From IMG/VR virus record IMGVR_UViG_3300043446_000587: a DNA stretch of 64,000 bases. One strand, written 5' to 3'. Made by a program: the position numbers and the translations under genes. This document shows, piece after piece, positions 25,165-45,080 of this stretch (positions within the stretch are counted from its first letter, which is position 1; each line of letters begins with the position of its first letter). The notes under the pieces were generated by a model, which searched no databases, was not told the DNA's origin, and saw only the letters and a program-made list of their open reading frames with translations. The stretch comes from an uncultured virus (IMG/VR IMGVR_UViG_3300043446_000587). Its lineage: Duplodnaviria > Heunggongvirae > Uroviricota > Caudoviricetes.

Positions 25165-26682
25165 TTACACTGTGTAATACCGTTCACCACGGTGACTTTT
25201 AAACCATTGAATATCTTCTGGCTCATCTGTCGGCAGACGAATGAACCCGCCTTGTCTGAAGCGCAGTAGTGCTTGTGTTGTTGAGTCCACCAAGTCATCG
25301 TTCAGGCCAGCAGGGAAGTCATTACACTCCTCGATGACCTCGTGTGCCCAGCGCCTGTCAGGGGCCCACACCATCCCAGAAGAAAATAAGTCAGATACTG
25401 CGTTTACCCTGCTAATCTTATCCTGTCCCTTGCTCGGCGTAAACTCAGACACGGGCACGCCCATGCGTCTCAATTCTTGATACAGAGCAGCACCGTTACT
25501 CTTCTTCTCAACCACGAACGCATCTGGCTCCCAGTACTGATACTCCTCGAGCACCTTCTTCTTGAGTTCTGGAAACTCCATGCGTTTCTTGACGGCGTTG
25601 AGCAAGATGATGTTGTACGCCCCAGTCTTGTGGTGCTTGAACACACCCCACGTTGTTAGCGCGTTGTAGTCAGCTCGTGTGTTGGCTTCTTGTGCAGCGT
25701 CCAGACTCATGATGATGAACTCGCACGATGGCGGTGGGTCATCCTCTGGCCACATCTGCCACCACTCTCTCTTAATAAGAGCGCCTTCCTCAGACACGGG
25801 GTTCTGCATGTACTGGGCTTCCCAGTAGCGAATATCCATGCCTGCCTTCTTAGCAAGCAATTCTTCAATCGTCCAGAACTCACCCCACAGAGGCTTCTCG
25901 TTCAAGATGGCTGGGAACTCAACCACTTCCCACTGATCGACGCCTTCTTCACGTCCCATCTGCTGAATAATCTGACCAGTCAGGTCCAATTTAGACCATC
26001 TGGTCATCACGATAATAATTGCACCACCCGGCATAAGGCGCTGAATAGGGCCAGACTGGAACCACTCCCAAGCAGGAAGAAAAACATCGGGTCGCCCAGT
26101 TTTCGCCTCTTGTTCTGAATGTGGGTCATCAATGATAAACAGGTCAGCACCCCTACCAGCAAGAGCACCGCCAACACCAATTGCAAAGTATTCACCATTG
26201 AAGTTCGTCCCCCAGCGTGATGCTGACTTTGAGTCAGATTGCAGCTCTATTTGCGGAAAAATGTCTCGATACGCCTCTGAACCCACAAGGTTACGAACGC
26301 GGCGGCCAAAATTAACAGCCAAGTCCGCAGTGTGAGACGCCATAATGACCTTCTTTTGAGGGTACTTACCCAAGAACCACGCTGGTGCAAGATAGGAAAT
26401 GAGCTCAGACTTACCATGTCGTGGAGCAATATTAACGATGACTCGTTTTTTCTTGCCAGCTGCAATTTCTTCAAAAATTCGAGCCAAACGGCGATGGTGC
26501 GGACCAACTTTGTACCCCGGATAGACGTGATCGACGAAGGAAAGTAGCGAGTTTTTGCCAATTTCTTGGATTGTTTTACTGTCCCACTCGTCTAAAAGCT
26601 CCAAAATGCGCCGTTTTTCGTCCGCAGCAGCGTACGGAAGCAGCTTTTTGAGGCGATCAATCTGTTCTTGCGTCAGTTTCAC
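25165..26682 (-). CDS. terL: Terminase large subunit
   Basis: Walker A (IAPRHGKS), Walker B (IIDD), MTRW, and nuclease motifs SLD and DDLVDS. A GTG start is inferred. Confidence 0.93.
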   Translation of the reverse strand: MKLTQEQIDRLKKLLPYAAADEKRRILELLDEWDSKTIQEIGKNSLLSFVDHVYPGYKVGPHHRRLARIFEEIAAGKKKRVIVNIAPRHGKSELISYLAPAWFLGKYPQKKVIMASHTADLAVNFGRRVRNLVGSEAYRDIFPQIELQSDSKSASRWGTNFNGEYFAIGVGGALAGRGADLFIIDDPHSEQEAKTGRPDVFLPAWEWFQSGPIQRLMPGGAIIIVMTRWSKLDLTGQIIQQMGREEGVDQWEVVEFPAILNEKPLWGEFWTIEELLAKKAGMDIRYWEAQYMQNPVSEEGALIKREWWQMWPEDDPPPSCEFIIMSLDAAQEANTRADYNALTTWGVFKHHKTGAYNIILLNAVKKRMEFPELKKKVLEEYQYWEPDAFVVEKKSNGAALYQELRRMGVPVSEFTPSKGQDKISRVNAVSDLFSSGMVWAPDRRWAHEVIEECNDFPAGLNDDLVDSTTQALLRFRQGGFIRLPTDEPEDIQWFKSHRGERYYTV

Positions 26683-27232
26683 GTTTGATCTCCACCGCTT
26701 GCACGTCAATCGTGCGTTTTTCGAGTTTGGCTAGCTTCTCGAGCAGCTCTTCTTCGACTTCTTCGAGCGTTTGCACCTTGTGAGTGACTTCTGTACGCTT
26801 TTTGAAGGCGTCTACACCATCAACTTCACCAATAGCGCGTAATGCCGCAAGCCTTATTTTAGGGTTAGTGTCTGTGGACTCGGCAACGAGCTGATTTACC
26901 ACGTACTTTTTCAGTTCGGCCAGCTCTTGCACGATATAAGTGTCGTGCTGCGCGACCATCCCAGCGAGATATGCAAGGGTTGGGTTGTTGTACTTGGCAA
27001 GTTGGGGGGTGTTTGCGGGGTCGGAGAGGATGACTTGGGCAACTTTACGCGCTTCGTCTTTGTCAGCGTCGTCTGGAATGATGGGGTTGCCAGTCAAATC
27101 AGAGATCATCTTGATAGTGCGTACTCGCATATCAAGCTCTTCTTGTGGGGAAAGGTCGGGCATGGCCTCAGTGGCCGATGCGGGTAGCGGCAGTCCGCTG
27201 TCGATTTCAGGGGTGATGTAGTTATCCATCAA
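26657..27232 (-). CDS. Putative terminase small subunit
   Basis: Immediately upstream of and overlapping terL. Helical protein with RLAALRAIG. Confidence 0.6.
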   Translation of the reverse strand: MMDNYITPEIDSGLPLPASATEAMPDLSPQEELDMRVRTIKMISDLTGNPIIPDDADKDEARKVAQVILSDPANTPQLAKYNNPTLAYLAGMVAQHDTYIVQELAELKKYVVNQLVAESTDTNPKIRLAALRAIGEVDGVDAFKKRTEVTHKVQTLEEVEEELLEKLAKLEKRTIDVQAVEIKRETDARTD

Positions 27233-27375: not shown

Positions 27376-27550
27376 AACTCAGAGAGGAGAAACCGCAACT
27401 GCGGCTTGGTGATGATACAGGAGTTTGGAAAAGTGTGGGATTATTTGTGCGGAATAGGGTGTATGGGGTGGAGTGGGTCCCATCTAGCCGTTTCGGGGGG
27501 TGGGGGTCATGGGGGAACTGGCTTCTGGGAAATTGAAGACCACACCCCAT

Positions 27551-27836: not shown

Positions 27837-27837
27837 C

Positions 27838-28074
27838 ATGAAAGCTAAGACCATTCCTCAAACACTCAAAGAGTTCATCGCACAAGATCAGTTCAATGCG
27901 TTGTTTGTTTATACAGCTCTCAATCGCTACGCTGAACATGTCATGACACTTCGCCCAGAAGATCACGAACGATCAGTAATCAGTCTTAACTTGGTGCAAG
28001 AAATTGCCAAAGACTGGCAACAGATGACACAAGAACCAATCAAAGCCAAGATTGGCGAAGCTCAGAAAATCTAA
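27838..28074 (+). CDS. Early hypothetical protein
   Basis: MKAKTIP start right after the previous stop. Followed by hairpin 28080..28099. Confidence 0.6.
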   Translation: MKAKTIPQTLKEFIAQDQFNALFVYTALNRYAEHVMTLRPEDHERSVISLNLVQEIAKDWQQMTQEPIKAKIGEAQKI

Positions 28075-28118
28075 ACCAAGGCGGGGCGCAAGCCCCGCCA
28101 CTCAGAAAGGAAATCAAA

Positions 28119-28310
28119 ATGATTAAGAATGTAATTAACACACTCACTGGCATGATTATCGGTATGTTGTTCATGTCCATGTTCTATTGCCAACAGCTTG
28201 GCATCACATCAGGACCGATGTACATCGGTTGGGATACAGCGGCATTCACACTCGGCGGCGTCATCGCTATGCGTCTCTTGGTGTGGCTCGACCCATCGTT
28301 CGCTGACTAA
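28119..28310 (+). CDS. Small two-TM membrane protein
   Basis: AAGGA RBS and two hydrophobic segments. Confidence 0.6.
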   Translation: MIKNVINTLTGMIIGMLFMSMFYCQQLGITSGPMYIGWDTAAFTLGGVIAMRLLVWLDPSFAD

Positions 28311-28330
28311 TCATTGGGGCTCACGCCCCT

Positions 28331-28353
28331 TTGAGACCAGTTATTAGTTCTCG
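28331..28353 (+). repeat. 23-bp intergenic repeat, copy 1
   Basis: TTGAGACCAGTTATTAGTTCTCG, with other copies at 29006 and 29910. Confidence 0.85.
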
Positions 28354-28409
28354 AGTGAGCAAGCCTCCAAGCGGCCAAGCGTGCGCTCAAGCGTGTTGTG
28401 AGCCACCGA

Positions 28410-28469
28410 AACTTTACTTATAATAGAGCCAATGCCAAGGCAGACACGAAGTCAGAAGACCTAGGCAGA
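28410..28469 (+). repeat. Early promoter/leader repeat, copy 2
   Basis: TTGTGA(28396)-17-TATAAT(28419). One mismatch and one indel relative to copy 1. Confidence 0.9.
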
Positions 28470-28488
28470 TTACAGAGGAAACTCAAAA

Positions 28489-28947
28489 ATGCAAAAACGC
28501 AAAACAAACCCTTTTATTCAGTCCTTGAATAGCGCTATCAGCACTGCAAAGCGCAAGGCCCGTGACGAATACGAAACCGCAAAGCATGCGGCAAATAAGC
28601 GCTTGGAGTGGAGAGCCAAGTACGCTAGCATCTTCAAGAGCGTCAGTCCTGACACTCTGTCGATTTCGCTCTATTCGCATGGTATGACGGCCTATGTATT
28701 CTTGAATGAGCTTGATTCTTTCAAGGATGAGCGCTTGACCACATTGTTGTCTGCCATCTATGAGCACACAAACTATATTGAAGAGCGTGATTATGCGGCT
28801 TGTTTCAACAAGGACTATATCGCTAATCTTGAAGGCTTGGAAATTCGTGTAGCGGCCTATGTCAAGTCTGACAGCCCAAACTGCTTCAGGGTTCAAGTGG
28901 GGACTGAGGTTCGTGAAGTTCCCAAGTACCAAATGGTCTGCAACTAA
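28489..28947 (+). CDS. Early hypothetical protein
   Basis: GAGGA RBS, 152 aa, followed by a terminator. Confidence 0.65.
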   Translation: MQKRKTNPFIQSLNSAISTAKRKARDEYETAKHAANKRLEWRAKYASIFKSVSPDTLSISLYSHGMTAYVFLNELDSFKDERLTTLLSAIYEHTNYIEERDYAACFNKDYIANLEGLEIRVAAYVKSDSPNCFRVQVGTEVREVPKYQMVCN

Positions 28948-28962
28948 TCAGACCGCCAATAG

Positions 28963-28993
28963 CTCAGCCCTTCGGGGCTGGGTTATTTTTTTT
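28963..28993 (+). terminator. Intrinsic terminator
   Basis: CTCAGCCC-TTCG-GGGCTGGG followed by a T-tract. Confidence 0.85.
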
Positions 28994-29005
28994 GGCCTCT
29001 GGCCA

Positions 29006-29028
29006 TTGATACCAGTTATTAGTTCTCG
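29006..29028 (+). repeat. 23-bp intergenic repeat, copy 2
   Basis: TTGATACCAGTTATTAGTTCTCG. Confidence 0.85.
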
Positions 29029-29167
29029 GGCGCGGGCGGCGTGGTGCGGGCGGGCGTGCGTGCGTCATTTGGGCGAAGGCTTAATTAAGCCATCATGCGG
29101 TGATGAAGTTATAATTAGTGCGTCACCCAAAGGTGACATCTTTATTAACTTTTTTGGAGTATTCAAA

Positions 29168-29848
29168 ATGAAAGCAAAGCAAAACAACACCGCTAACAAT
29201 GCGGTGACAATCAAAAACGAAAAAGACGCCGCATATCAATTTGCGGTTTTGCGTGATAGCGGTAGGTCAATCGTGCAATGGATTTTGGAAAAACACCCCG
29301 ATTTTGCGGACAATGTTTCAGATACCCTTAAGGCACAATTGTATGAGGGTTTGACCACCCGCTACCATGAAAACAATGGCGAGAATGTTTATATGCAGGG
29401 CGATACTGGCACTCTTATCCCTATCGGGAATACAGTTAAGGGTGTGGCTTGCAATGGCAAATTTATGCCGAAAGTGGAAAAAATGCCAGAGGGTGCGGTA
29501 GCTTATGGCATACACCATGTTTTAGCTTACACACCCCAACAGTTGGGCATGATGAAAAGCAAAGAGCCCGCATTGCATAGCATTTTGTCACCTATCAATA
29601 GTTCATTCCGCAAATATGCGTCTAATACTGTGGGTGATATGCAAAAAATGGCAAAGAAAATTATTGACGAAAAAGAGGGCAAAACGCAAACCCGTGAAAT
29701 GCTGCTCTTTATTGATAGCATGACAAAACAATTCGATGCTTGGGATAAACAAGTTAAAAACGCCGAAAAGCGTCTAGACGATACCGCATCATCGGTGCGT
29801 TATCGTGTCGCCAGAGACGCATTTTTCAAAGCCTATAACGCTAAGTAA
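29168..29848 (+). CDS. Early hypothetical protein
   Basis: MKAKQNN start after a GGAG RBS. Relatively AT-rich, with its own terminator. Confidence 0.65.
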   Translation: MKAKQNNTANNAVTIKNEKDAAYQFAVLRDSGRSIVQWILEKHPDFADNVSDTLKAQLYEGLTTRYHENNGENVYMQGDTGTLIPIGNTVKGVACNGKFMPKVEKMPEGAVAYGIHHVLAYTPQQLGMMKSKEPALHSILSPINSSFRKYASNTVGDMQKMAKKIIDEKEGKTQTREMLLFIDSMTKQFDAWDKQVKNAEKRLDDTASSVRYRVARDAFFKAYNAK

Positions 29849-29862
29849 TTTGCTCTGACCAC

Positions 29863-29898
29863 ACCCCGCCAGCCGCAAGGTTGGCGGGGTTATTTTTT
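29863..29898 (+). terminator. Intrinsic terminator
   Basis: ACCCCGCCAGCC-GCAA-GGTTGGCGGGGT followed by TATTTTTT. Confidence 0.85.
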
Positions 29899-29909
29899 GC
29901 CCCTGCCTT

Positions 29910-29932
29910 TTGATGCCAGTTCTTAGTTCACG
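29910..29932 (+). repeat. 23-bp intergenic repeat, copy 3 (diverged)
   Basis: TTGATGCCAGTTCTTAGTTCACG. Confidence 0.75.
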
Positions 29933-29993
29933 CGCGCGTGGGAGGGTGCCAATCCTCTGGGTGAACGCTTAATTAACTGTTCACCCTCACATG

Positions 29994-30553
29994 ATTCCAA
30001 AATTCCAACACGATTCCAATTTGGTTGGAACTGACTTGGAATTTTGGAACTGACTCGGTTGGTTTGCGCCAAGCAAACATTTAGCCATGAGCCGATTCCA
30101 ACCCGATTCCAAATCAATTTGATAAATTGGAACTTAAACCAGTAGGGTTTTAGTATTCATGTCGCCAAATGTGCGTTTAAGCGCCATACCCTTTAGTTCT
30201 AATTTTGTCCATCAGGGTGAGCTGAGTATTAATCTAGTTCCAAAATTCCAAAATTCCAACAGCTTTTTGCGGATTTGGCATGTCAGAGCATTCGTTCGAC
30301 TAGAAACGCACGATGCGTTTTCCACGCCCTCAAAGTTTGCAAAAACAAAAAATTACTCGCCGCTAGAGCAGAACCCCCTTGGAATTTTGGAATTTTGGAA
30401 CTAGATTAATACTACTACTACTACTACTATATTTATATATATTATTAGTTCTCTTTTTTCCCTCATTCCCCACCCCTTCGCTAACCTTAGTATTACAGTA
30501 TTAAATTCCAACCCAGTTCCAATTTATCAAAACTATATTGGAATTTTGGAACC
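29994..30553. repeat. TTCCAA/TTGGAA array with nested inverted repeats (candidate replication origin)
   Basis: Perfect 35-bp IR at 30225..30259/30379..30413 and 17-bp IR at 30118..30134/30515..30531. Also (ACT)n and an AT-rich tract. Confidence 0.85.
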
Positions 30554-30626
30554 GAATGAAACCAAGTATTCATTTCCCCCTCAAAAGTAATACCAAGCTA
30601 ATAACTTTATTAAATAAATTAGCCAC

Positions 30627-30655
30627 TAGACTAAATGTGTAAAGTTTAGTATAAT
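30627..30655 (+). promoter_or_regulatory. Sigma70-like early promoter
   Basis: TAGACT-17-TATAAT with an AT-rich upstream (UP-like) region. Confidence 0.7.
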
Positions 30656-30728
30656 GCCGATGTGCTCGGGGATTGCTCAAGCACGACTGTTAATTAAATA
30701 CTCACCCTCACATGAAAGAGAGATTGCC

Positions 30729-31001
30729 ATGAACCCATCTTTGCCCCGTGCAATTCGCAAAGCGTTGCGCATTGTGACCCCCAAGCAAGTAGTTGCGAGA
30801 GATAAGCACACAGACCTGACTGAGTGCTTCCGCACAGAGTATCGGCTCGACACATATCACACACAGAACCTTGAGTATCTCGACCGAGGCTATGACTTCG
30901 ACGAGTTCCACGACATTGACGACGAGCTGGAGGGGCTGACGATTGTCGAGTGCTCAGACGATGCTGAGTTGTTCGAGTTCTGCACAGGCTACAACATCTG
31001 A
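30729..31001 (+). CDS. Small protein with a highly acidic C-terminal half
   Basis: MNPSL start, then DFDEFHDIDDELEGLTIVECSDDAELFEF. Confidence 0.6.
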   Translation: MNPSLPRAIRKALRIVTPKQVVARDKHTDLTECFRTEYRLDTYHTQNLEYLDRGYDFDEFHDIDDELEGLTIVECSDDAELFEFCTGYNI

Positions 31002-31012
31002 AGGGACACAGC

Positions 31013-31162
31013 ATGGACAAAGAAACACTTACACCTGACGAGTTGCACGACTTGTGGGTGTTGGCTACCAACGAGGCTGACCGCTTTGATGAAGTGCGCT
31101 ACCACTTCACGGCGTTGGCAGAGAAGCTTGCCCGTATGTATAAAGCACAACAGGAGGTGTGA
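31013..31162 (+). CDS. Small hypothetical protein
   Basis: Read manually as MDKETLTPDELHDLW... after an AAGGGA RBS. Confidence 0.5.
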   Translation: MDKETLTPDELHDLWVLATNEADRFDEVRYHFTALAEKLARMYKAQQEV

Positions 31163-31163
31163 C

Positions 31164-31664
31164 ATGGGATATCGTTCAGAAGTTGCTTACCTGATAGCGT
31201 TTCCAAACGAGGCGCAACTGCATGCGTTCGTGGCACAGGCAAAGGTGTTGTCCAACACCCCCAACGAGAACCTGAAGCCCCTTGGAAGGTATGGGAATAT
31301 GGCATCAGCCTTGGATGAGTGCCAGATTAAGCCCGATGCTGACCCGCCGCACATATCGTTCTATGCCGACTCTGTTAAGTGGTATGAGAGCTACGACGAT
31401 GTTCAGAGTCATGAATCGTTACTTGCTTTGGCGAAGGAAAACTATGCCGATGGCGGAGAAAAGACGACTCGATACTGCAACGCAAACGGCTTAAGCGGCA
31501 CATGCACATTGATATCGGCTGAGTTCATGCGGCTTGGCGAGGACGACAACGACACCGAACATTATTCTTTTGGTATGTCACCCCTTACTGAATCGTTCTA
31601 TGTCGATAGGCGTATTGGTATGTTGGGTAGCCTAGCGCAGAATGTTATCGACCATCTCAAGTGA
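31164..31664 (+). CDS. Conserved phage early protein (MGYRSEV type)
   Basis: AGGAGG RBS. MGYRSEV...VKWY...F.RLGEDD.D pattern. Confidence 0.65.
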   Translation: MGYRSEVAYLIAFPNEAQLHAFVAQAKVLSNTPNENLKPLGRYGNMASALDECQIKPDADPPHISFYADSVKWYESYDDVQSHESLLALAKENYADGGEKTTRYCNANGLSGTCTLISAEFMRLGEDDNDTEHYSFGMSPLTESFYVDRRIGMLGSLAQNVIDHLK

Positions 31665-31681
31665 GAAAGTATATTAACAAG

Positions 31682-31710
31682 TTGACTTATATGACAAGTT
31701 GTGGTATACT
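31682..31710 (+). promoter_or_regulatory. Sigma70-like early promoter
   Basis: TTGACT-17-TATACT with an extended TG. Confidence 0.8.
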
Positions 31711-31773
31711 CCCGTTGTGCTCGGACAGTAGTTCAGCACACATCTTAATTAACCATTCACGAGGACATGAATC

Positions 31774-32016
31774 ATGGGACGCATCAAGGACATAGCGACA
31801 GCAATCGAAGAAGCACAGGAGTTGGGTTTAATCCCACAGCTTCCCCAGACACTTTATTTACTGATGGAGGGACTGCAACCCGTCGGCGTGTATCTGCACA
31901 AAGATGTGGCTGACTACGACGCATGGCTCTGCAACTCGGCAGGCGATGCTGAATACACAGTTGTTGCAACACCGTTCTATCGTGAGACTTTGGAGGAAAT
32001 CGAATGTCGCGTATGA
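31774..32016 (+). CDS. Hypothetical protein
   Basis: GAGGA RBS, ORF track. Confidence 0.55.
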   Translation: MGRIKDIATAIEEAQELGLIPQLPQTLYLLMEGLQPVGVYLHKDVADYDAWLCNSAGDAEYTVVATPFYRETLEEIECRV

Positions 32017-32216
32017 AACCATTATGCGTTCGATGTGGCGAAACTTACTCGGCCAAACGAGCCAACGCAGGGTATCAGCTTTGCATGCCATGCGGGGAGG
32101 ACGAGTCACACAAGCGCAGACGCACAGTTGCGCCCATGCACAAGAGCAATTACATGCTTATCACCAACCCCGAGGACCTCAAGGGACTCAACAACAAAGG
32201 AGGGTTCTACCGATGA
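32004..32216 (+). CDS. Small Zn-finger protein
   Basis: CVRC...CMPC...PMHKSNY. Confidence 0.6.
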   Translation: MSRMKPLCVRCGETYSAKRANAGYQLCMPCGEDESHKRRRTVAPMHKSNYMLITNPEDLKGLNNKGGFYR

Positions 32217-32467
32217 CCCGAGACCAAGCTAAGAATGTTTTAACCCACGCCAAGCTGATTGCTCAACAGGCGGCTGAAATCTGCAAAGAGGAAGGCAGTC
32301 AGATAAACAATCAAGCCACGATTAGTGCGCTGATGTTGGCGACCTGCATCATGGGGCGCTTCTTCAACGAGGACAGGGAACTGATGCACCACTTACTTGA
32401 GGCAATGATGGGGGCAATCGACGAGATGCCCTGCGCCGATGAATTTATTAACAACCATGTTCACTAA
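32213..32467 (+). CDS. Hypothetical protein
   Basis: MTRDQ start, ATGA overlap, GGAGG RBS. Confidence 0.5.
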   Translation: MTRDQAKNVLTHAKLIAQQAAEICKEEGSQINNQATISALMLATCIMGRFFNEDRELMHHLLEAMMGAIDEMPCADEFINNHVH

Positions 32468-32477
32468 GGAGAACGCC

Positions 32478-33380
32478 ATGCAACTTCAAAAACCCAAGCA
32501 CCTGATATCTTTGGCAACGAGTGCCGTTGTCGTTCATGTTGAGGTGAATGTTTGGACAGCGACCCGACAGGATAAACAAATCTCTAACGAAGTCACAACC
32601 GCCAAGCGTGCAAGCGCAGACGCAGGTAAGTTCACGCAGAACCTGCTTGCCAATTCGCCCGAGCACAAGGCGCTTCTTAATTACAGGCAGACAGTCTATA
32701 ACTGGCTTCAGCGTTGCACTTTTGATTGGAGTGGGGCGGCTCGACTGCTTCCGACAGTTCGCATAGAACAGTTTATGACAGAGCTGACGCAACACAAGGC
32801 GGCGTTCCAGAAGCTTTTGGACGACTTCACGGCAAAGTATCCGAGTATCGTGAGCGATGCGGCGTTCAAGCAGGGCGACATGTTTGACCGTTCAGCATAC
32901 CCTGATGTGCAAGATGTTGAGCGCAAGTTCAGAATCCGAGAATTTATCTCAGCCGTGCCTGAGAACGACTTCAGGAATAGCATCAGCGGCGTGTTGGCTG
33001 ACGACTTGGCGCAACACTACCAAAGACAGACGGAGGCTATCGTGAATGATGTAATGAGCGATGCCGCTGACCGCCTTGTGTTGATTGCCGAGCGCATCAG
33101 TTCTGCGTGTAGCGAACCAGAGGCAGACGATGACGGCAAGGTGCGCCGCAAGAAGATTTACGAGAACACTATCAAGAATGCCCGAGACATTTGCGATGTG
33201 TTGAAAGAGTTCAACCTGACAGGCAACGACGCATTGGAGGGCGCTCGTTCCCAACTGGAGACAGCGTTGCGTGATGTGACCTTGGACGACTTGCGTGAGA
33301 GTAGCTATGTCAGAGCCAAGGTCAAGGACAGCGTGGACGACATGTTGAGTAAGTTCAAACCATTGAGGAGCTTCGCATGA
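32478..33380 (+). CDS. DUF3150-like protein
   Basis: AAGGAG RBS. W...R.D...G..LLP...YP...FDRSAYP...NLTG pattern, typical of genes next to AAA/VWA pairs. Confidence 0.6.
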   Translation: MQLQKPKHLISLATSAVVVHVEVNVWTATRQDKQISNEVTTAKRASADAGKFTQNLLANSPEHKALLNYRQTVYNWLQRCTFDWSGAARLLPTVRIEQFMTELTQHKAAFQKLLDDFTAKYPSIVSDAAFKQGDMFDRSAYPDVQDVERKFRIREFISAVPENDFRNSISGVLADDLAQHYQRQTEAIVNDVMSDAADRLVLIAERISSACSEPEADDDGKVRRKKIYENTIKNARDICDVLKEFNLTGNDALEGARSQLETALRDVTLDDLRESSYVRAKVKDSVDDMLSKFKPLRSFA

Positions 33381-33455
33381 CTATATTGTTTGGCGTGTTG
33401 GCAACGGCTTGCGTGTTGCTGATACTAGAGAATTTCTTTGCACTAGGAGTATGAG

Positions 33456-33629
33456 ATGACTGATTTAGAAGTTGTTTTGTTGTTGGCGTTCTTGTTCATG
33501 TTGTGGTTGCACTTCAGGCAACGCCATGACATTCGTATGTTGAGACACATCGTCATTGATGTTGGGCTGAAAGAGGCCCGTATTGAGGTGGACGAGAAGT
33601 CCAATGTTGTTCGTGTTATCCGTAATTAA
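33456..33629 (+). CDS. Small membrane protein
   Basis: Read manually as MTDLEVVLLLAFLFMLWLHF... with an AGGAG RBS. Confidence 0.5.
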   Translation: MTDLEVVLLLAFLFMLWLHFRQRHDIRMLRHIVIDVGLKEARIEVDEKSNVVRVIRN

Positions 33630-33657
33630 TCACTCACCCAAACCAGAAAGGTAAACC

Positions 33658-34725
33658 ATGTCTAAAGTCAATTTCTCTATGTCTGTTTCATTGCATGAAG
33701 CGAAAGAGGTTATCAAAGCAATCGGTGACACGATTACACCAATCGTTGTGTCCGAGCCAGGTGTCGGCAAGTCAAGCATCCTGAAGATGCTTCAGGCTGA
33801 GATGGGTGACGGTTACGACTATATCTATGTGGACTGCCCTGTGAAGGACATGATGGATGTGGCGGCTAGCATTCCCAACCATGACCGCAAGGCGTTGGAA
33901 TACTATGTGTCGGACTTGTTCAAGATGGACAGCGGCAAGCCCAAGGTCATCATGCTCGACGAGTTCATGAAAGCGCCGAAGCTTCTGCAAATTATCTTCA
34001 CTAGATTGATGCTTGAGCGAAGCGTGGGTGATAAGCCCCTGCCCAAAGGTTCGTATGTGTTCGGCACTTCAAACAATACGACAGACGGCGTTGGCGACAC
34101 CGTTCAGGGTCATGTGGGTAATCGTGTATGTTTCTTGCCGATGCGCAAATCAACCGCAGACGAGTGGAACTTGTGGGCTACCGAGCATGGCGTTGCGAGA
34201 CCCATTCGTGCATGGGTTGCTATGAACCCTCGTGCAATGAAGTCTTACCTCGACCCTGACCAACAGGACAATCCATACATCTTCAAGCCCTCAAGCACAT
34301 CGAAGTCTTTTGTGTCGCCTCGTTCGCTTACGAAAGCATCTCCCATTGTGGAGAAGCGAGACATCATTGGCGAGAACGCCATGATGGTTGCGTTGGCAGG
34401 CACGATTGGCGAAGCGGCGGCTAAGTCTATGGCGGCGTTCATTGCGTTCGAAGGCAAGCTTGTGTCGTTCAAGGATGTTATTGCCGCACCTACCAAGGTG
34501 GCTGTGCCTGATGATATCTCTGCGCAAGTGATGATGATGTTCGAGGCTGTGGACTATGTCGAGACTCAGGACGAGCTGAACAGCTACATGGAGTTTGTCA
34601 ATCGCACCAAGTCAAGCGAGGTGCAAAGCATCTTCTTCACAATGATTATGCGAGCCAAGCCCCGTGTCGCTCGCTACAACGAGCAGATTACCAAGTGGGC
34701 AACTGCTAACCACATGTTGATGTAA
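33658..34725 (+). CDS. AAA+ ATPase (MoxR-like)
   Basis: Walker A SEPGVGKS, Walker B MLDE, sensor TSN, NR arginine finger, SPRS. Confidence 0.85.
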   Translation: MSKVNFSMSVSLHEAKEVIKAIGDTITPIVVSEPGVGKSSILKMLQAEMGDGYDYIYVDCPVKDMMDVAASIPNHDRKALEYYVSDLFKMDSGKPKVIMLDEFMKAPKLLQIIFTRLMLERSVGDKPLPKGSYVFGTSNNTTDGVGDTVQGHVGNRVCFLPMRKSTADEWNLWATEHGVARPIRAWVAMNPRAMKSYLDPDQQDNPYIFKPSSTSKSFVSPRSLTKASPIVEKRDIIGENAMMVALAGTIGEAAAKSMAAFIAFEGKLVSFKDVIAAPTKVAVPDDISAQVMMMFEAVDYVETQDELNSYMEFVNRTKSSEVQSIFFTMIMRAKPRVARYNEQITKWATANHMLM

Positions 34726-34741
34726 TACAGGAGGAACTTAT

Positions 34742-35950
34742 ATGTTGAGTCAAGAGGACCGTGTCAAGAAGGCACACATCATGATGATGAAGCACCCAGA
34801 GACTGCGTTCTATTCGGGCGTGATGATGATGGGTAATACCGAGGTGGTGGACAGCGGCATAACTGCCTACACCGATGGGGTAAACAAACGCTACGGCAGA
34901 AAGTTCTTAGAAGAGTTCTGCCCTGACCAAGCGACGGTCAATGGTCTGGTGTTGCATGAGAACTTGCACATCGCATTGCGTCACATGATTCACAGCATCG
35001 ACCTGTTCAAAGAGGACAGACAGCTAGCGAACATGGCGGCTGACTATGTAGTGAACGACATCATCATGACACTCAAGGACCAGAGTCTAGCCAAGTTACC
35101 AGAGGGCGGGTGCTATGACCCGAAGTATCACAACATGAACATGCGAGAGGTATATCGCATGCTCAAGAAAGAGAAAGAGGAATGCAATGGTGGGAGTAAG
35201 CCCGAAGGCGACAACGAAGGTAACGGCTCAGGTGGGGGTGATTACCAATTTGACGACCACGACATCGAAGGTCAACAACAAGACGGCAAGGACTTTGCGG
35301 ACAGAGCAAAAGAACTTGACTCTATGGTTGACAGAGCATTACGGGAGGGTGCGTTACTTGCTGGTCGCCTTGGCATTGACCTACCCCGAGCCATTACAGA
35401 GATACTTGAACCCCAAGTCAACTGGCGTGAAGAGCTTGCCAACTTTGTGACCGCATCGTGCCGTGGCAATGATGAATACACATGGCGCAAGTTCAATCGC
35501 CGTCAAATCGCCAACGACATTTATCTGCCAACTGTGGAGGATGAAACTATCGGAGAGATTGTTGTGCCCATCGACACATCAGGTTCTATCGGTCAGGAGC
35601 AACTCAACGAGTTCGCCTCAGAACTGGTCTCTATCGCAGAAGCTGTTCAGCCTGAACGCATTCGCATTTTGTGGTGGGACACCAAGGTTCATGGCGAACA
35701 AACCTTTGGACCAGATGAGTTTCAGCAGATAGGTTCTTTGCTCAAGCCACAAGGCGGCGGCGGAACTAGGGTGTCATGCGTGGCTGAATACATAAAGAAG
35801 AAAGACATCAAGGCTGATTGCGTGGTGGTGTTCACCGACGGATATGTTGAATACGATGTTGAGTGGGGAATTTCTTCACCGACATTGTGGCTTGTAACTG
35901 AAAACAAATCGTGGGTTGTCCCCGCAGGTAAGAAAGTGATGGTTAGCTAA
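34742..35950 (+). CDS. Metallopeptidase-like + VWA domain protein (DUF2201-like)
   Basis: TAYTDG, HENLH (HExxH), MIDAS DTSGS, GGGGT, FTDG. Confidence 0.85.
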   Translation: MLSQEDRVKKAHIMMMKHPETAFYSGVMMMGNTEVVDSGITAYTDGVNKRYGRKFLEEFCPDQATVNGLVLHENLHIALRHMIHSIDLFKEDRQLANMAADYVVNDIIMTLKDQSLAKLPEGGCYDPKYHNMNMREVYRMLKKEKEECNGGSKPEGDNEGNGSGGGDYQFDDHDIEGQQQDGKDFADRAKELDSMVDRALREGALLAGRLGIDLPRAITEILEPQVNWREELANFVTASCRGNDEYTWRKFNRRQIANDIYLPTVEDETIGEIVVPIDTSGSIGQEQLNEFASELVSIAEAVQPERIRILWWDTKVHGEQTFGPDEFQQIGSLLKPQGGGGTRVSCVAEYIKKKDIKADCVVVFTDGYVEYDVEWGISSPTLWLVTENKSWVVPAGKKVMVS

Positions 35951-36928
35951 ATGAGTTATGCGTTCTATGATGTGAGGGGGTTTTCCTCCCATGCAGACTT
36001 TGTCAACGGACATTTACCATACAAGGGCGAACTCAAGTCGTATCCGTTGGGTGATAGGCGCTACTCGGCACGGCACTTCCGTGTGCGTGACGATGGGCGT
36101 GTGGATATTTACTATCTCCACAGAGGTATGCAGGACCGTTTCGAGAAGGGCGAATTGCCTGAGAGCGACACGAACTGGATTAAGCGACGATTGATAGCGA
36201 GTGTCTTTCCTGACAACACAGTCGAGTTCTTCAATCTAGGCATGGGTGAAGCCATGCTTATGTCAAGAGTCTTTGATGCGTGGATTTGCCATAGTAAGCG
36301 TCGTGGCGGGTATGTTCTAAGCAACAAGAAAGGGGAAGCACACCCCATATTCAAGGGGCAACGGTTCAAGCTCGGTTCACTTGAGAGCGTGACACCTTAC
36401 GAGATACAACAGCGTAGGGTGAATCGTAAATTGGCAGTCGAGGCGATGAAACCCTACAAAGAGTTCATTGATGTAGCACCCGTCATGCTTGGCGCAATGG
36501 ATGTGAGAGGTATGTGGGAAGTGGGCGTTGACTTAGTCAAAGACGCTTGCAAGCGCCACAACATTGACCCTACCGAGACATATCGGGTATACCATGCGCT
36601 TCCATACCGCAAGGTAGACGATGCGTTCTTTGACATGATAGAGAAGAAACACTATGTCGATGCCGCAATCTATTTCTGTCTGGCGCATGATGTCAACGGC
36701 ACACGATGGGCTTTGTCCCGTTCTGAAGGTCCACCAACATGGACGGACAACCGAGTTCTTCATCTGAAAGAAGTTCTTCGGTGTCGGTTGAATACTCACT
36801 TGGCAAAGGACACATACTACAAACACAACGCATTCAACCTGAAGTCATACGAGATGGGTGCACTACCTACCTCGACATGGGATTTGATTATTACAACGGA
36901 CGGCGCTCCCGTAGAGCGTGTTTCTTAA
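35951..36928 (+). CDS. Hypothetical protein
   Basis: 325-aa ORF abutting the VWA gene. Confidence 0.65.
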   Translation: MSYAFYDVRGFSSHADFVNGHLPYKGELKSYPLGDRRYSARHFRVRDDGRVDIYYLHRGMQDRFEKGELPESDTNWIKRRLIASVFPDNTVEFFNLGMGEAMLMSRVFDAWICHSKRRGGYVLSNKKGEAHPIFKGQRFKLGSLESVTPYEIQQRRVNRKLAVEAMKPYKEFIDVAPVMLGAMDVRGMWEVGVDLVKDACKRHNIDPTETYRVYHALPYRKVDDAFFDMIEKKHYVDAAIYFCLAHDVNGTRWALSRSEGPPTWTDNRVLHLKEVLRCRLNTHLAKDTYYKHNAFNLKSYEMGALPTSTWDLIITTDGAPVERVS

Positions 36929-36940
36929 CTGGAGGTAACT

Positions 36941-37897
36941 ATGATTTCGCAATTCGCTGACCAAGCAAAGGTCCAAGAAATATTTTCCCGTTCACCTGAA
37001 CTGGAACGATTCGCTTTCGAGTTCTGTAAAGCATTCAACTGCACAATCCAAGAGTGTCCTGAACCAGAGTTTGGTAGACGCAACCCAACCGTTGCGCTCC
37101 TTACAAAGGATGGTGTCCCTTGCGGCACTCTGAAGGTTGACCCATCAGGTGATAAAGATAAACAGTCAGGCAAGTATGTGCCAGTGTATTACTACGAGAG
37201 TCCCATCGTGTCGAAGTCCAAGGGTAGCGCACGGGCGGGGCGTAACTGCCGTGACTCTATCAGCATCAAGGGTTTGATAGACGCAACCAAACGGGCGAAT
37301 GATATTCCAACCATAGATAAATTATTGGAGCACCACATTAATGGCATATCGTATGCGTTCAGCGTGACCCAACGGGATACAGGTTCTTCCCGCATGCAAA
37401 TGTCTAAGGATGCGATATTAGCGTTAATCCGTAGTCACTTAGAACTTGACAAAAGCTCCGTGAACTTATACGATGCCGAAATCAAAGAAATATATAAGCA
37501 GTATCTAGATAGTGAGAAGAAGTCAATGGAAGCAAACAAACTGTATGAACGGTTCTGCGCAGGTAGCTACCTTATCGGGGTGCATAGACCAGAGCGCCAC
37601 ATGCCACCGTTCTACACCGTTGCAGAGGTGTCAAATAATGGTATGAGACACACCAAAGATGTGAAAGACTTTACCTTTCATACCCCCCTGAAGCGTTACG
37701 CAAGCCTGATGGATTGTCCAGAGATTGCCCCGCATGTTCCTATCATTGCGGCATGGGCTAGCGGTATGTTACACAGCGACGCAGACAACGAACTCAAGTT
37801 ACCACGAGCAGATAAATACTATCCTGAGATAGATGTGGCGAGTGGTTACGCTGATGTAGAAGTTGCATGGCACTTGATTCCCAAGGCGCACGAATGA
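36941..37897 (+). CDS. Hypothetical protein
   Basis: GGAGG RBS, 318 aa. Confidence 0.65.
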   Translation: MISQFADQAKVQEIFSRSPELERFAFEFCKAFNCTIQECPEPEFGRRNPTVALLTKDGVPCGTLKVDPSGDKDKQSGKYVPVYYYESPIVSKSKGSARAGRNCRDSISIKGLIDATKRANDIPTIDKLLEHHINGISYAFSVTQRDTGSSRMQMSKDAILALIRSHLELDKSSVNLYDAEIKEIYKQYLDSEKKSMEANKLYERFCAGSYLIGVHRPERHMPPFYTVAEVSNNGMRHTKDVKDFTFHTPLKRYASLMDCPEIAPHVPIIAAWASGMLHSDADNELKLPRADKYYPEIDVASGYADVEVAWHLIPKAHE

Positions 37898-38220
37898 TAA
37901 GACCCTCACTAGAACCTATGCCCACACCAAGTGTCACAGCTTGGCGTGTTCCCATGTGGGTAGAGGAAGGGGACTACACAGTGCATTTGAGTGAGCGGCA
38001 CATACGCATATACGACGAGACCACGCTACCAGACTTCATCAAGGCAAGCATGTCAATGATTAACGCATTCCCATTCAAGCCCATGCAAGAAGGGGTGGTT
38101 TGGCGTGCGGCGTATACGCATAACACTGACCCACGACAAGCGGACATAGGTTGGCGATGCACTTGGAATCTGTATATGCTGATTCTTAGCGAAGCACAAC
38201 TGGAGAGCATGAATGGCTAA
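37894..38220 (+). CDS. Hypothetical protein
   Basis: MIRPSL start, ATGA overlap. Confidence 0.55.
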   Translation: MIRPSLEPMPTPSVTAWRVPMWVEEGDYTVHLSERHIRIYDETTLPDFIKASMSMINAFPFKPMQEGVVWRAAYTHNTDPRQADIGWRCTWNLYMLILSEAQLESMNG

Positions 38221-38512
38221 AACACCCGAAGCGAAAGTCAAAGCTAAAGTAACTGGCATCCTCAAGGACCAAGGCGCATATTTTTTCTACCCCGTCACGG
38301 GTGGATTCGGTGCGTCTGGCATACCTGACATTGTTGGTTGCATTAACGGTCGATTTTTCGCTATCGAGTGCAAGGCAGGGGACAACAAACCCACAGCGCT
38401 TCAGTTACACAACATTAACGCAATCATGACCAGAGGTGGTTACGCACTTGTGGTCAATGAAGACAACATCAACGCAGTAGAAGGATTAATCACATGGCTG
38501 AAGACTTTGTAG
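38213..38512 (+). CDS. VRR-NUC family nuclease (resolvase-like)
   Basis: TPE.KVK, G.PD, F.AIECK, PTALQ motifs. Confidence 0.85.
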   Translation: MAKTPEAKVKAKVTGILKDQGAYFFYPVTGGFGASGIPDIVGCINGRFFAIECKAGDNKPTALQLHNINAIMTRGGYALVVNEDNINAVEGLITWLKTL

Positions 38513-38682
38513 GATGTCCAACAACACGGTGCTACCCGAGAACAATGCTTGAGGCATTCCCTGACGATGTAGAGAACGCAAAGTGGTGGTATCCACCAGA
38601 GCAAAGGTGGCAGGACAAAGCGTTCTTTGCAGTTGGCGTAGCCGCTTGGGTGGGGCTTGCTCTTTACTTCTGGTTTGCCTGA
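38494..38682 (+). CDS. Small membrane protein
   Basis: TTRCYPRTMLEAFP followed by a TM segment. Confidence 0.5.
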   Translation: MAEDFVGCPTTRCYPRTMLEAFPDDVENAKWWYPPEQRWQDKAFFAVGVAAWVGLALYFWFA

Positions 38683-38794
38683 TGGATACATTAACAAACA
38701 TCCTTGGGTTCGCCGCCCTGATGGGGATAGGCGTAGTTGTAGTTGGGGTCGTCGTGTTCCTATACATGAGGGCACTTGAAATGTTGGAGAAGAA

Positions 38795-39130
38795 ATGAAA
38801 CTGGAAGACAAGAGGCAACAAGCCCAAGAACCACCACCAGAGTGCCAAACAGAAGCAGAGAAGAAAGCATTTGCTTTTGGTTGGTGGAAGGCTATGGAAG
38901 CACAGCGAGCAGAGAAGCAAGAGCCTGTGGCGTTCGCAAGCCACGGCGTAATCAACTGGATTGCTGATCGTCAGTTTCAGCATGAGGCTGACCTATACAC
39001 CCACCCACAACCAAAGCGTGAATGGGTTGGGCTGACGGATGAGGAGATTGAAGATTTGCTTTCTATGTTTTTCACTGGAGATGAACAGATTAAAGCCATT
39101 GAAGCCAAATTAAAGGAGAAGAACACATGA
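38795..39130 (+). CDS. Hypothetical phage protein
   Basis: QEPVA...REWVGLTDEEI...AIEAKLKEKN, a common proteobacterial phage motif. Confidence 0.6.
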   Translation: MKLEDKRQQAQEPPPECQTEAEKKAFAFGWWKAMEAQRAEKQEPVAFASHGVINWIADRQFQHEADLYTHPQPKREWVGLTDEEIEDLLSMFFTGDEQIKAIEAKLKEKNT

Positions 39131-39354
39131 AGCGAGAGCAGTATGACTTCCTGATACCACCAGACCTGCCGAAAGAAGTAGCGCAAACCATGTATTACTT
39201 TCCCCACAGAACCGGAAGCAGTTTGTCGTTAGCACCTCGTGGTCCTGCAATGAACGAGTTGCCATGTATGGCGGCGCACTACGACAAAGACCGCAATCTG
39301 TTATTCACACGATTCATTTTCAAAGACGGCACTTATAAGGACGAACAAGCATGA
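39127..39354 (+). CDS. Hypothetical protein
   Basis: Part of an ATGA-overlap chain. Confidence 0.5.
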   Translation: MKREQYDFLIPPDLPKEVAQTMYYFPHRTGSSLSLAPRGPAMNELPCMAAHYDKDRNLLFTRFIFKDGTYKDEQA

Positions 39355-39593
39355 CACCAGAAGACGAAGCATTTGAAGCAATCGAAAAAGCACAGGGTTG
39401 GCGCAAGCGTCAGATTGATGCGCTTATCGAAGAGGACATGGATATACCCATGCAACAACACCGTGAAGCGTTGTCTCACGCACGAAACCAAACACTTGAA
39501 GAAGTGGCGGCAGAGATAGAAAAATTCACATTCGCGTTCGGTGTTGACACCGTCAGTAGCTTTGCGGCATTCGTGAGGGCGATGAAGCAATGA
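39351..39593 (+). CDS. Hypothetical protein
   Basis: MTPEDEAF...RNQTLEEVA. Overlap chain. Confidence 0.55.
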   Translation: MTPEDEAFEAIEKAQGWRKRQIDALIEEDMDIPMQQHREALSHARNQTLEEVAAEIEKFTFAFGVDTVSSFAAFVRAMKQ

Positions 39594-39799
39594 ATGACAT
39601 TGTATTTTTTATAGTGCCCATCGTGACTTTCTTAATCTGCGCTGGTATCTGGTGCGGTGTGCGTGAGCTGTTCAACCGATGGGTCAACAACGATTGGTGC
39701 AAGCACGAGTGGGATATGTGGTCAGGCGTGGACAAGGATTCACAAAGACAATACCGCTTCTGCAAGAAGTGCAACAAGGCTGAGCGAAGAATCCTGTGA
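39590..39799 (+). CDS. Small TM + Zn-ribbon protein
   Basis: TM segment followed by CKHEW...CKKC. Confidence 0.5.
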   Translation: MNDIVFFIVPIVTFLICAGIWCGVRELFNRWVNNDWCKHEWDMWSGVDKDSQRQYRFCKKCNKAERRIL

Positions 39800-39955
39800 T
39801 TGAAACTGTAAAGACTTACACAGGCGACACACGTTGGGTTCAGAACTCAGCGGGTGTGCGTGAACTCAGGTGTAGGGTGCGTGAATACACACTATGGAGT
39901 TGCACAAAGTGCAGTTTGTATTTTTGGTCAGAAGAGAAAGCAAAGGAGCACAAGC

Positions 39956-40174
39956 ATGACACAAGATGAAATCATTGAGATGGCTAGACAGGCGAAGCTA
40001 CCCCATTACTGGGAGACGGGCGACATTGTGTGTCTTGATGCCGTAAAAGCCTTTGCCAAACTAGTAGCAGAGCGTGAGCGTGAGGCGTGTGCAAAGCTGT
40101 GTGAAGAACGATGGAAAGATAGCCCTTGGCTTATTGAAGCGGCGGCAGCAATCCGAGCAAGAGGTGACCAATGA
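39956..40174 (+). CDS. Hypothetical phage protein
   Basis: MTQDEIIEMARQA...EREACAKLC...AIRARG with an AAGGAG RBS. Confidence 0.6.
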   Translation: MTQDEIIEMARQAKLPHYWETGDIVCLDAVKAFAKLVAEREREACAKLCEERWKDSPWLIEAAAAIRARGDQ

Positions 40175-40389
40175 AGTGTCCAGAGTGCGGCGCATGGTCA
40201 ACGGTCACATACACACGCAAGTCTGAAAATTTTGGATACACCAGAAGGAGAGAGTGTGCAAACTACCACAAGTTCACAACACAAGAAACTGTTGTCCCCG
40301 AAGAAGCAATCAAAGAGCGGCAAAGAGAAGCCGCCCTCACAAATCTCAGTAAAGGACGTGCAAAGCGCATGGCCCTTTACTCGGATTGA
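40171..40389 (+). CDS. NrdR-like Zn-ribbon protein
   Basis: MKCPECG...RRRECAN.HKFTT.E. Confidence 0.7.
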   Translation: MKCPECGAWSTVTYTRKSENFGYTRRRECANYHKFTTQETVVPEEAIKERQREAALTNLSKGRAKRMALYSD

Positions 40390-40471
40390 CGGTAAGGTGC
40401 TTCAGCGCCTACATCGTCAGGTTAGTAGAAGTCAGTATGAAGAAAGCCCTTTTTAACTCAGGAGAAGTCAA

Positions 40472-40942: not shown

Positions 40943-41184
40943 GTTACAGCTCTAACACAACCACAGTCAATGTCCCAATCACTTTGAACGGGACATCCAT
41001 TACCCTTCAGGGGCACATGCAGACAGAATACATCACTCCAGACCCGATTGCAAAATATCTGACGGAGATGGAGTGGTATCGAATGAACCACCGTTGGGGG
41101 AATAAAGAATTACCCAACACATACCTAACATGGGAACAAGCAGTTGTGTATTGTTTGGTCCGTCCCTTCTTTAATCCGGAGTAA
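40939..41184 (+). CDS. Hypothetical protein
   Basis: MSYSS start, ATGA overlap. Confidence 0.45.
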   Translation: MSYSSNTTTVNVPITLNGTSITLQGHMQTEYITPDPIAKYLTEMEWYRMNHRWGNKELPNTYLTWEQAVVYCLVRPFFNPE

Positions 41185-41188
41185 TGAA

Positions 41189-43876: not shown

Positions 43877-43898
43877 ACAACTCAGTAAGGATTCAGTA

Positions 43899-45056: not shown

Positions 45057-45080
45057 CAAATAAAAAATCGGACTTATCAT
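45053..45080 (+). promoter_or_regulatory. Sigma70-like promoter for the ncRNA cluster / helicase operon
   Basis: TTGACA-16-TATCAT. Confidence 0.6.

Follow-up and report, generated by a model that had tools for sequence, protein, structure and literature searches.

The window, by which we mean the whole stretch of 64,000 nucleotides (nt) analyzed here from the uncultured virus record IMGVR_UViG_3300043446_000587, contains a nearly complete phage genome, and in the early gene arm of this genome eight short restriction-type words have been purged almost completely. The DNA bearing this purge is most likely the first to enter the cell, and the purge would then represent a known principle in an unusually deep and graded form. 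What is new here is its depth, its fixed position across the family combined with lineage-specific sets of words, its graded and motif-specific reach, and a relaxed tip. Selection against restriction-type words within a fixed zone is well supported by our sequence comparisons, because a codon-preserving null, an ortholog-position test and the lineage-specific motif sets of relatives all point to it.

The first-pass annotation of the window had described, from a manual scan, a region without GATC between 27975 and 38965 and without CCGG between 27310 and 39211. Both observations hold. The flanking GATC sites lie at 27971 and 38966, leaving an empty gap of 10,995 nt, and the flanking CCGG sites at 27306 and 39212 (gap of 11,906 nt). 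Markov-corrected palindrome counts, the check that had been proposed, did not reveal any missed GATC or CCGG site and gave observed/expected values of 0/33.1 and 0/18.4, respectively, for 27975-38965. The estimate that dozens of each should be present was right for GATC (27-33) and somewhat high for CCGG (13-35, depending on the null). At the late-arm rate, the probability of finding no site is 2.7e-12 for GATC and 3.8e-16 for CCGG; collagen-like Gly-Pro tandem repeats in the fibre genes (5774-5924 and 7131-7249) raise the late-arm CCGG count. In 500-nt block shuffles, the observed GATC or CCGG run was matched in 0 of 20,000 cases, a test that is narrow for GATC because the longest shuffled run was 20 blocks versus 21 observed.

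The counts also uncovered six further purged words: ACGT, GTAC, CGCG, GGCC, GCWGC and GGNNCC. The ACGT gap extends from 26901 to 39831 and the GTAC gap from 28926 to 43919. Depletion of CASTG and CCAGC is weaker, with CCAGC being low on both strands. TCGA, AGCT, CATG, GCGC, CTAG and GANTC are not depleted, and TGCA is slightly low. A different pattern was obtained for CCWGG, which is almost missing genome-wide: 2 sites are present in 64 kb, while the codon null predicts ~105 in genes. A screen for Type I-like bipartite words did not yield a distinct motif; the top matches mostly contained the depleted short words.

For the codon null, synonymous codons were shuffled within each of the 16 core genes in 300 rounds. 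The observed/expected counts were 0/24.6 for GATC, 0/12.8 for CCGG, 0/35.2 for ACGT, 0/17.8 for GTAC, 2/36.6 for CGCG, 2/19.7 for GGCC, 1/18.4 for GCWGC and 0/17.6 for GGNNCC, and those of unpurged words were 32/38.9 (TCGA), 26/30.2 (AGCT), 63/47.5 (CATG) and 33/36.2 (GCGC). The GC content at third codon positions of the core genes is 0.56, versus 0.52-0.56 elsewhere. We then compared the window with its relatives at ortholog positions, meaning sites at which the word is present in at least one relative and the residues encoded by the window are identical. In the DUF3150, AAA and VWA genes the window retains the word at 0 of 171 such positions, compared with 55 of 201 for control palindromes. 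Retention was 8/120 in the polymerase gene (controls 44/146), 38/258 in the helicase and primase genes (controls 74/271), and 137/569 in four late genes (controls 147/613). The words have thus been lost by silent changes in place, and this loss weakens with distance. Sites have been removed across the whole coding sequence, not merely beside promoters. Because of the codon-shuffle null and the ortholog-position test, codon usage does not explain the purge.

The purged region is not one block. It consists of a partly purged tip, a near-empty core and a ramp to ~52 kb, whose borders were set after inspection of the data. The joint density of the eight words per kb is 26.6 in the late arm (1-27,230) and 32 in 27,231-27,510; it drops to 6.6 in 27,511-30,254 and 0.46 in 30,255-38,900, rises to 5.0 up to 43,900 and 13.2 up to 52,000, and reaches 23.9 up to 64,000. 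Most words recover mid-arm, within a single run of co-oriented genes. The features to which we refer are listed here in window coordinates.

25165..26709, minus strand: terminase large subunit gene terL (PHROG 38, Pfam Terminase_6N/6C); the late (structural) arm begins here, with normal site density.
26657..27232, minus strand: putative terminase small subunit gene terS, assigned by position only and used as coordinate anchor.
27470..27510, no strand: left edge of the purge, where a G-rich element lies; candidate position for the leading end of virion DNA, based on the change-point and contig ends.
27511..30254, plus strand: tip, with variable small-gene cassettes, repeated promoter/terminator words and partial purge; candidate terminal redundancy.
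29994..30552, no strand: non-coding box array in which TTCCAA/TTGGAA occurs in either orientation; it includes an AT-rich tract and a 46-nt inverted repeat (30225-30270/30368-30413).
30255..38900, plus strand: core purged zone, with 4 sites of the eight motifs in 8.6 kb.
30729..31001, plus strand: 90-amino-acid (aa) acidic protein, the first gene past the box array, with a sigma70-like site at 30627-30655; weak candidate DNA mimic.
32478..35950, plus strand: conserved trio of a DUF3150-like protein (Pfam match below cut-off, E 7e-4), an AAA ATPase and a DUF2201 metallopeptidase-VWA protein (Pfam).
35951..37897, plus strand: two conserved proteins (325 and 318 aa) without known family, encoded where the core ends.
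38901..52000, plus strand: ramp, in which the words return one by one across the polymerase, helicase and primase genes, and GCWGC remains purged to the arm junction.
52003..60638, minus strand: large proteins of the ejection type, one of 2064 aa with LPD38 and one of 808 aa ("DNA ejection protein"); late-arm site density is regained.

To place the purge among relatives, 24 genomes were scored, namely the window and 23 relatives with the AAA gene and enough late DNA. Left out were G001 (the same phage, without the core), G002 and G008 (both contigs without the AAA gene) and the distant phage MinM2. A word was called purged when it was observed at no more than 15% of an expectation of at least 9, and 11 candidate words were considered. 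Seventeen of the 23 relatives purge between one and six of these words in the same zone, and the window purges eight. GATC is purged in 4/24 genomes, which form one terL clade (support 95/91), and is at or over expectation in most others; GTAC and CGCG are purged in the window only, and AGCT in G020 only. The AAA gene of the window falls outside the AAA group of the other GATC purgers, its nearest homologs (74%) being those of the GATC-rich G010 and G015. The AAA gene and terL of the window are thus placed differently in the two trees, of which the AAA tree is a quick and weakly resolved one, and this indicates a mosaic genome.

When 16 genomes were pooled, observed/expected values of 0.8-1.5 were obtained left of terS, 0.41, 0.25 and 0.11 over the first 3 kb, 0.02-0.05 at 3-11 kb, 0.15-0.2 to 16 kb, ~0.4-0.6 to 25 kb and ~1 past 28 kb. 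This profile has a sharp left edge and a long right ramp; its trough is partly circular because the words were picked from that zone. The unselected words CCGG, GGCC and GCWGC gave a profile of the same shape in 19 relatives, and four of five held-out genomes also show it, the exception having 58% GC and one of the five, G027, being probably near G020. A contig that is 93% identical to the window (L232) has 12 CGCG sites within the alignment. Of these, 4 remain in the window, whose own 4 sites are all present in L232, and none of the 5 located right of 30,254 does, which makes the CGCG purge look recent. Other deviations in word content were seen as well. In the core zone of 19 relatives, the enrichment of TCGA and CATG is about 1.5-2-fold. 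CCWGG has at most 4 sites in 16/24 records, GGWCC is missing or almost missing across the whole genome in G004, G011, G012 and G026, as is CCGG in G026, and GTAC is missing from all eight 8-kb bins of MinM2 (L081-L082, 69% GC), where 4-12 are expected per bin.

The reach differs from word to word: it is short for ACGT, middle for GATC and GGCC, up to the arm junction for GCWGC and genome-wide for CCWGG. Measured as the right-hand change-point in kb from the start of the AAA gene, the reach is 3.0-6.1 for ACGT (n=3), 9.7-12.0 for GATC (n=4), 8.2-12.8 for GGCC (n=6), 10.6-14.9 for GGNNCC (n=4), 5.5-18.6 for CASTG (n=3) and 16.3-23.4 for GCWGC (n=15). The GCWGC purge ends -0.2 to +5.0 kb from the convergence point of the two arms in 15/15 genomes. 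This step at the arm junction is partly due to residue content; the ratio between purgers and non-purgers still rises from 0.12 to 0.5.

The first-pass annotation had placed the leading end of the genome at 27.3-27.6 kb. Several observations agree with this position. The left change-point of the window lies at ~27,490, +260 nt from the start of terS (relatives, +120 to +2,640 nt), and the independent identical contig G001 ends at 27,508. Among 80 terL-anchored related contigs, 13 end 0-300 nt upstream of terS, a rate of 0.64 per kb at risk versus 0.08-0.32 elsewhere (3-4-fold excess). A G-rich element like that at 27470..27510 was found with one regular expression in 8 relatives. What does not fit the placement is that the deepest purge lies ~3 kb inside. 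The evidence for an end of the virion DNA near 27.5 kb is indirect.

Read depth gives a hint on the nature of the tip. In two runs of one sample, the depth of an exact-match contig covering 28,418-30,254 is 50.4 and 57, versus 15.6-22.3 and 27-36 right of 30,254, and 27-32.5 and 31-45 left of 28,418. This step of ~2x, located at the 46-nt inverted repeat of the box array, would fit a redundancy of 2-3 kb, either as a terminal repeat or of pac type. A redundant tip would explain the partial purge and the short-lived sites found there; none of the three GATC sites of the tip is shared with L232. A similar cluster of 9-19 boxes is located +1.8 to +4.0 kb from terS in 15/20 genomes scored. The array is origin-like, and may be a packaging signal or an origin for the 957-aa primase-helicase. 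It also carries an ACT-repeat, and DnaA-box-like words are present at the array in G007 and G026. The small-gene cassettes of the tip are bordered by a 68-nt direct repeat (27551-27618/28410-28478) and by a 26-nt repeat (TTGATACCAGTTATT-like) at 28328, 29003 and 29907; six related contigs start at the 26-nt word. The gene at 29168 is present in 1-3 copies in relatives. Searches with the promoter-repeat pattern of the window gave 0 matches in viral contigs and 1 contig in metagenomes.

In the reading that we consider likely, the leading end of the virion DNA is fixed near 27.5 kb, entry is slow and rightward, and the purge protects this DNA against host nucleases until protection grows. The early genes would then travel ahead, and entry would be so slow that position along the DNA stands for time. 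The unprotected front would be exposed to sequence-specific nucleases of the host, so that target words would be lost by silent changes. The risk would drop as protection grows, whether because an early phage product acts, because methylation by the host catches up, or through repair and replication, and sites would come back along the ramp, every word at its own distance. The tip (27.5-30.3 kb) would be under weaker selection if it is redundant. Pulling by host RNA polymerase is our guess for the slow entry, based on the lack of an annotated phage RNA polymerase and on the transcription-dependent entry of the T7 genome, as described in the accessible text of PMC12455610. The purged words are presumably host restriction targets. 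Their number, eight, points to a host population whose systems vary between strains, probably not to one cell with eight such enzymes. The motifs by themselves do not separate Type II restriction from methylation-dependent systems. A more detailed version reads the nested boundaries as a timetable of infection, in which ACGT would be neutralized first, GATC, GGCC and CCGG next, GCWGC after entry of the whole early arm and CCWGG never, through an undescribed inhibitor that acts on restriction enzymes with short sites and is encoded in the core (the trio or the 325-aa protein), with the redundant tip relaxing the frontal selection; this version is speculative and we hold it with considerable doubt.

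A number of observations weigh against slow rightward entry from a leading end near 27.5 kb. The deepest purge begins ~3 kb inside the arm rather than at its edge, the reach of CCGG is scattered (5.3-24.8 kb, n=11), and the halt of the GCWGC purge at the transcription switch is also in keeping with an effect of gene class. Rightward promoter-like sites show no overall excess (24 versus 19.8 +/- 4.4 expected), and scans of the early proteins against PHROGs, Pfam and NCBIfam did not detect a named anti-restriction family. Six of the 23 relatives (G003, G005, G012, G019, G021 and G022) do not reach the purge criterion set above despite having the same early genes; partial purges were seen among them (G012, ACGT 0/9; G021, CCGG 5/24 and GCWGC 5/31). 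Nor are the relatives independent rows, because three pairs share 36-44% of their 21-mers. The contig ends near terS may be assembly breaks, because they are scattered over 200 nt of G/C runs beside a variable region, and some of these contigs are near duplicates. The depth step comes from contigs in two runs of one sample, which may be the source. Its left edge differs between these runs, a third run does not show it clearly, and it could also be a segment shared with another strain. Finally, when a hidden Markov model (HMM) of 54 phage AAA sequences was used to search 9 sequences, the plasmid ATPase Vcrx089 was not reported at E<=10.

Several other explanations can be set against this likely entry from 27.5 kb. 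The same selection could act on DNA that is led, or packaged, from the box array at ~30.3 kb, as a pac-like start or the end of a terminal repeat, with the tip only sometimes in front. The purge is indeed deepest right of the array, the left change-points of relatives are widely spread, and depth falls across 30254-30384 in both runs, decaying leftward in run X1 (50, 46, 42, 27-32) as in pac-type packaging. Run X2 instead resembles a flat 2x block, density is already fourfold lower at 27.5 kb, and a headful series would smear the edge into terS and terL, both of normal density; we therefore judge this arrangement improbable. Similarly small chances are given to the idea that the words are avoided since orphan methylases of the hosts mark them, and marked sites trigger methylation-dependent nucleases in the next host or disturb the transcription of early genes by host polymerase, so that gene class and timing rather than entry order would matter. 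Most words recover mid-arm inside a co-oriented gene run and sites are lost throughout coding sequence, which this idea does not account for, and its nuclease form still requires early exposure. It does gain from the GCWGC stop at the arm junction in 15/15 genomes, from the genome-wide rarity of CCWGG in 16/24 genomes, and from lake bacteria in which, in the accessible part of PMC6329791, GCWGC, GATC and AGCT methylases occur without partner nucleases.

Import of the early block from a donor phage already poor in the words is largely refuted. Despite the mosaic genome, with its different tree placement of the AAA gene and terL, the most similar AAA genes (G010 and G015, 74%) lie in GATC-rich cores (26/29 and 20/28) while the window has none, words were lost silently at homologous positions, and the gradient spans conserved core genes. 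Just as faint is the chance that the depletion is linked to an origin-like array, for instance by avoidance of methylation-dependent sequestration near an origin. The box array does stand at the start of the core, with DnaA-box-like words in some relatives (the motif as given in the accessible text of 10.1101/866236), but the depletion is one-sided (3 kb to the left normal, 20 kb to the right depleted), involves eight unrelated words, and leaves GATC unpurged in 20/24 genomes of the same layout. Chance, strand bias or codon usage, the last two of which the first-pass annotation had named as grounds for abandoning its claim, can be regarded as refuted. Nulls that keep codons and residues give z values of -4 to -8 across the eight words, ortholog positions agree, palindromes are strandless, and CCAGC is low on both strands; this outweighs the slightly different codon use of early genes and a report, in the accessible part of PMC13478746, of codon adaptation instead of motif depletion in plasmid leading regions.

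The proposal that the purge is directed at restriction targets, with an early anti-restriction product ending the exposure, stands as far as selection on restriction-type words is concerned; no known anti-restriction family was found among the early proteins scanned. Candidates for a protective factor would be the DUF3150-AAA-DUF2201 trio, the 90-aa acidic protein and the two proteins of ~320 aa. By analogy, the trio is a candidate anti-defence module: in an IncC plasmid, the AAA gene vcrx089 together with vcrx090 gives strong protection against Type I and weak protection against some Type II systems (accessible parts of PMC7498323 and PMC11602122). In AAA-anchored loci, DUF3150 and AAA are present in 64/64 and VWA in 57/64. 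The nearest cultured ATPases to the AAA protein are those of N4-like phages (21-26%); a search against PDB sequences gave nothing useful.

The 90-aa protein has a net charge of -10 (median of homologs, -9) and an invariant acidic motif, and homologs are present in 19/23 relatives, both purgers and non-purgers. Ocr has a far higher charge. No PHROG or PDB sequence match was found for the 90-aa protein, and its model is poor (pTM 0.19). The 325-aa protein (35951-36928) has 169 homologs, a confident model (pLDDT 95.6) and the conserved elements PYRG, YPLG-R, D88, G119-G120 and W310. Foldseek gave no PDB match at E<=0.001, and BFVD gave uncharacterized phage proteins only; the absence of a PDB match for the predicted structure does not show that the fold is new. 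The best VIA match, to a restriction-enzyme chain (Z 4.6, on a helical part), was taken as noise. Two proteins, among them the 318-aa protein, gave no usable feature match in the Atlas. The candidate early genes are also present in non-purging relatives, and gene content therefore does not explain who purges; it is more likely that host defences decide this.

The window belongs to a freshwater podophage that is a distant relative of HTVC023P. Its terL product is ~48-53% identical to those of psg01, DSL-LC04, HTVC027P and HTVC023P, and 77-87% identical to the 80 best of 600 IMG/VR matches; the best-matching sequencing runs are freshwater metagenomes. Contig G001, which matches the window without a difference over 27,508 nt, crosses from the window start into the window end, and this overlap gives a circle of 64,484 bp with 484 nt outside the window. 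Structural genes run leftward from the putative terS at 27,232 (terL, portal, GroES, capsid, fibres, endolysin and ejection proteins to 52,003), and early and replication genes rightward from 27.6 to 51.8 kb. General library scans gave no family match above cut-off for the putative terS; its orthologs are immediately upstream of terL in 77/80 related loci. GC skew turns at 26.9 and 52.1 kb and, because these points coincide with the gene arms, is uninformative on termini. A megablast of 27.3-40 kb against cultured phages returned a single 61-nt match, a host search with the AAA gene against bacterial genomes one match of 43 residues, and Rfam 0 matches. The CTCAG-N6-CTGAG operator array is represented by only 2 copies in the window. 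DNA methylase motifs, searched with crude regular expressions, were not found in open reading frames of 28 records.

Three other genes deserve mention. Directly after the polymerase gene, 43415-43876 (plus strand) encodes a protein of 153 aa that carries a sigma-70 region 4 domain (E 2e-15), a candidate middle or late transcription regulator. At 47230-47688 (plus strand), a weak Mu Gam/Sipho_Gp157-like match (E 1e-4, below cut-off) lies near a PD-(D/E)XK nuclease gene, and the two might form a kit for DNA-end protection and repair within the ramp. The 2064-aa protein (52003-58197, minus strand) has an LPD38 domain of the polyvalent-protein type (E 7e-15); its MinM2 counterpart is annotated as RelA/SpoT.

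As to known systems, avoidance of sites in a leading region is established in T5-like phages (accessible text of PMC10644984 and 10.1101/866236) and in Murciavirus, whose authors state that earlier surveys of avoidance had not considered where the sites lie (accessible text of PMC12455610). The words local, injection, early and terminal are absent from the text of PMC6286503, and plasmid leading regions are not consistently motif-depleted in the accessible part of PMC13478746. Our literature search, in which subscription papers and supplements are little covered, gave no report dealing with depleted sites or genome ends in this group of phages. Of the traits of such leading regions, the window shows words depleted beyond effects of composition and codons, early variable genes, and a fixed place across relatives.

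Four groups invite comparison. The HTVC023P-type pelagiphages and DSL-LC04 (proposed "Dishuiviridae") share the order terL-portal-GroES-capsid and a size of ~60 kb with the window, according to the accessible parts of PMC9599517 and PMC10611076. Unlike the window, HTVC023P, DSL-LC04 and MinM2 have no comparable local purge in 8-kb bins; the HTVC023P-type phages and DSL-LC04 also have another early-arm layout and are absent among the 45 best phage AAA matches. The IncC hde operon (vcrx089-095) resembles the window in that DUF3150 and VWA genes accompany the gene of an AAA ATPase, in IncC just downstream of it. The AAA and VWA Pfam subfamilies differ, however, Vcrx089 being AAA_5 plus CbbQ_C; the phage VWA profile did not match the plasmid VWA protein, the DUF3150 match was weak (7 bits), and neither 8 early-gene HMMs nor alignment A1 matched Vcrx090 significantly. 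Because the phage family profiles miss the plasmid proteins save for the weak DUF3150 match, this likeness is an analogy only.

T7 and Murciavirus (Autographiviridae) resemble the window in being podoviruses in which a sub-genomic leading region is (in the window, presumably) the target of restriction and motifs are tolerated elsewhere, and in having variable small genes in front and a proposed early protective protein (accessible text of PMC12455610). In Murciavirus the avoidance concerns one Type I motif and is experimental, whereas in the window it concerns many palindromes of 4-6 bp over 11-25 kb and comes from sequence. The window also differs from both in having two opposed gene arms and in that no RNA polymerase, Ocr or SAM lyase is annotated. 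With the first-step-transfer DNA of T5 and BF23 (Tequintavirus) it shares ~10 kb at one end where sites would be dangerous and a repeat-rich non-coding stretch near a possible terminal-repeat end (accessible text of PMC10644984 and 10.1101/866236). Of the staged entry that the first-pass annotation proposed by comparison with T7 or T5, the avoidance of sites in the early arm is supported; the window has a graded ramp in place of a T5-like two-step block. T5-type two-step transfer, with a protected zone that equals the terminal repeat and stops where injection pauses, does not fit, since the purge is deepest past the putative redundant tip and fades over 13 kb. A general scan of 74 proteins detected no A1/A2-like PHROG; a direct comparison with T5 A1/A2 was not made.

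If the timetable reading were true, the sequence of uncultured phages would tell in which direction their DNA enters, which defences their hosts have and where anti-restriction genes lie. The motif-specific reach leads to predictions on entry kinetics, and leaves about a dozen genes in which to look for an inhibitor that acts on restriction enzymes with short sites. The word sets differ among relatives with the same genes, and could thus serve as fingerprints of host defences and, via methylomes, as phage-host links. A rule drawn from few cultured phages is here extended to a large group of uncultured lake phages. Compared with T5, whose first 9.7 kb are only mildly low in sites (GATC 26/33, CCGG 15/26), the core of the window has 0 of both, so that for 4-bp words its purge is much deeper than that of T5; the window is also of the short-tailed type, its deepest purge lies beyond the possible repeat, and its ramp extends over 13 kb.

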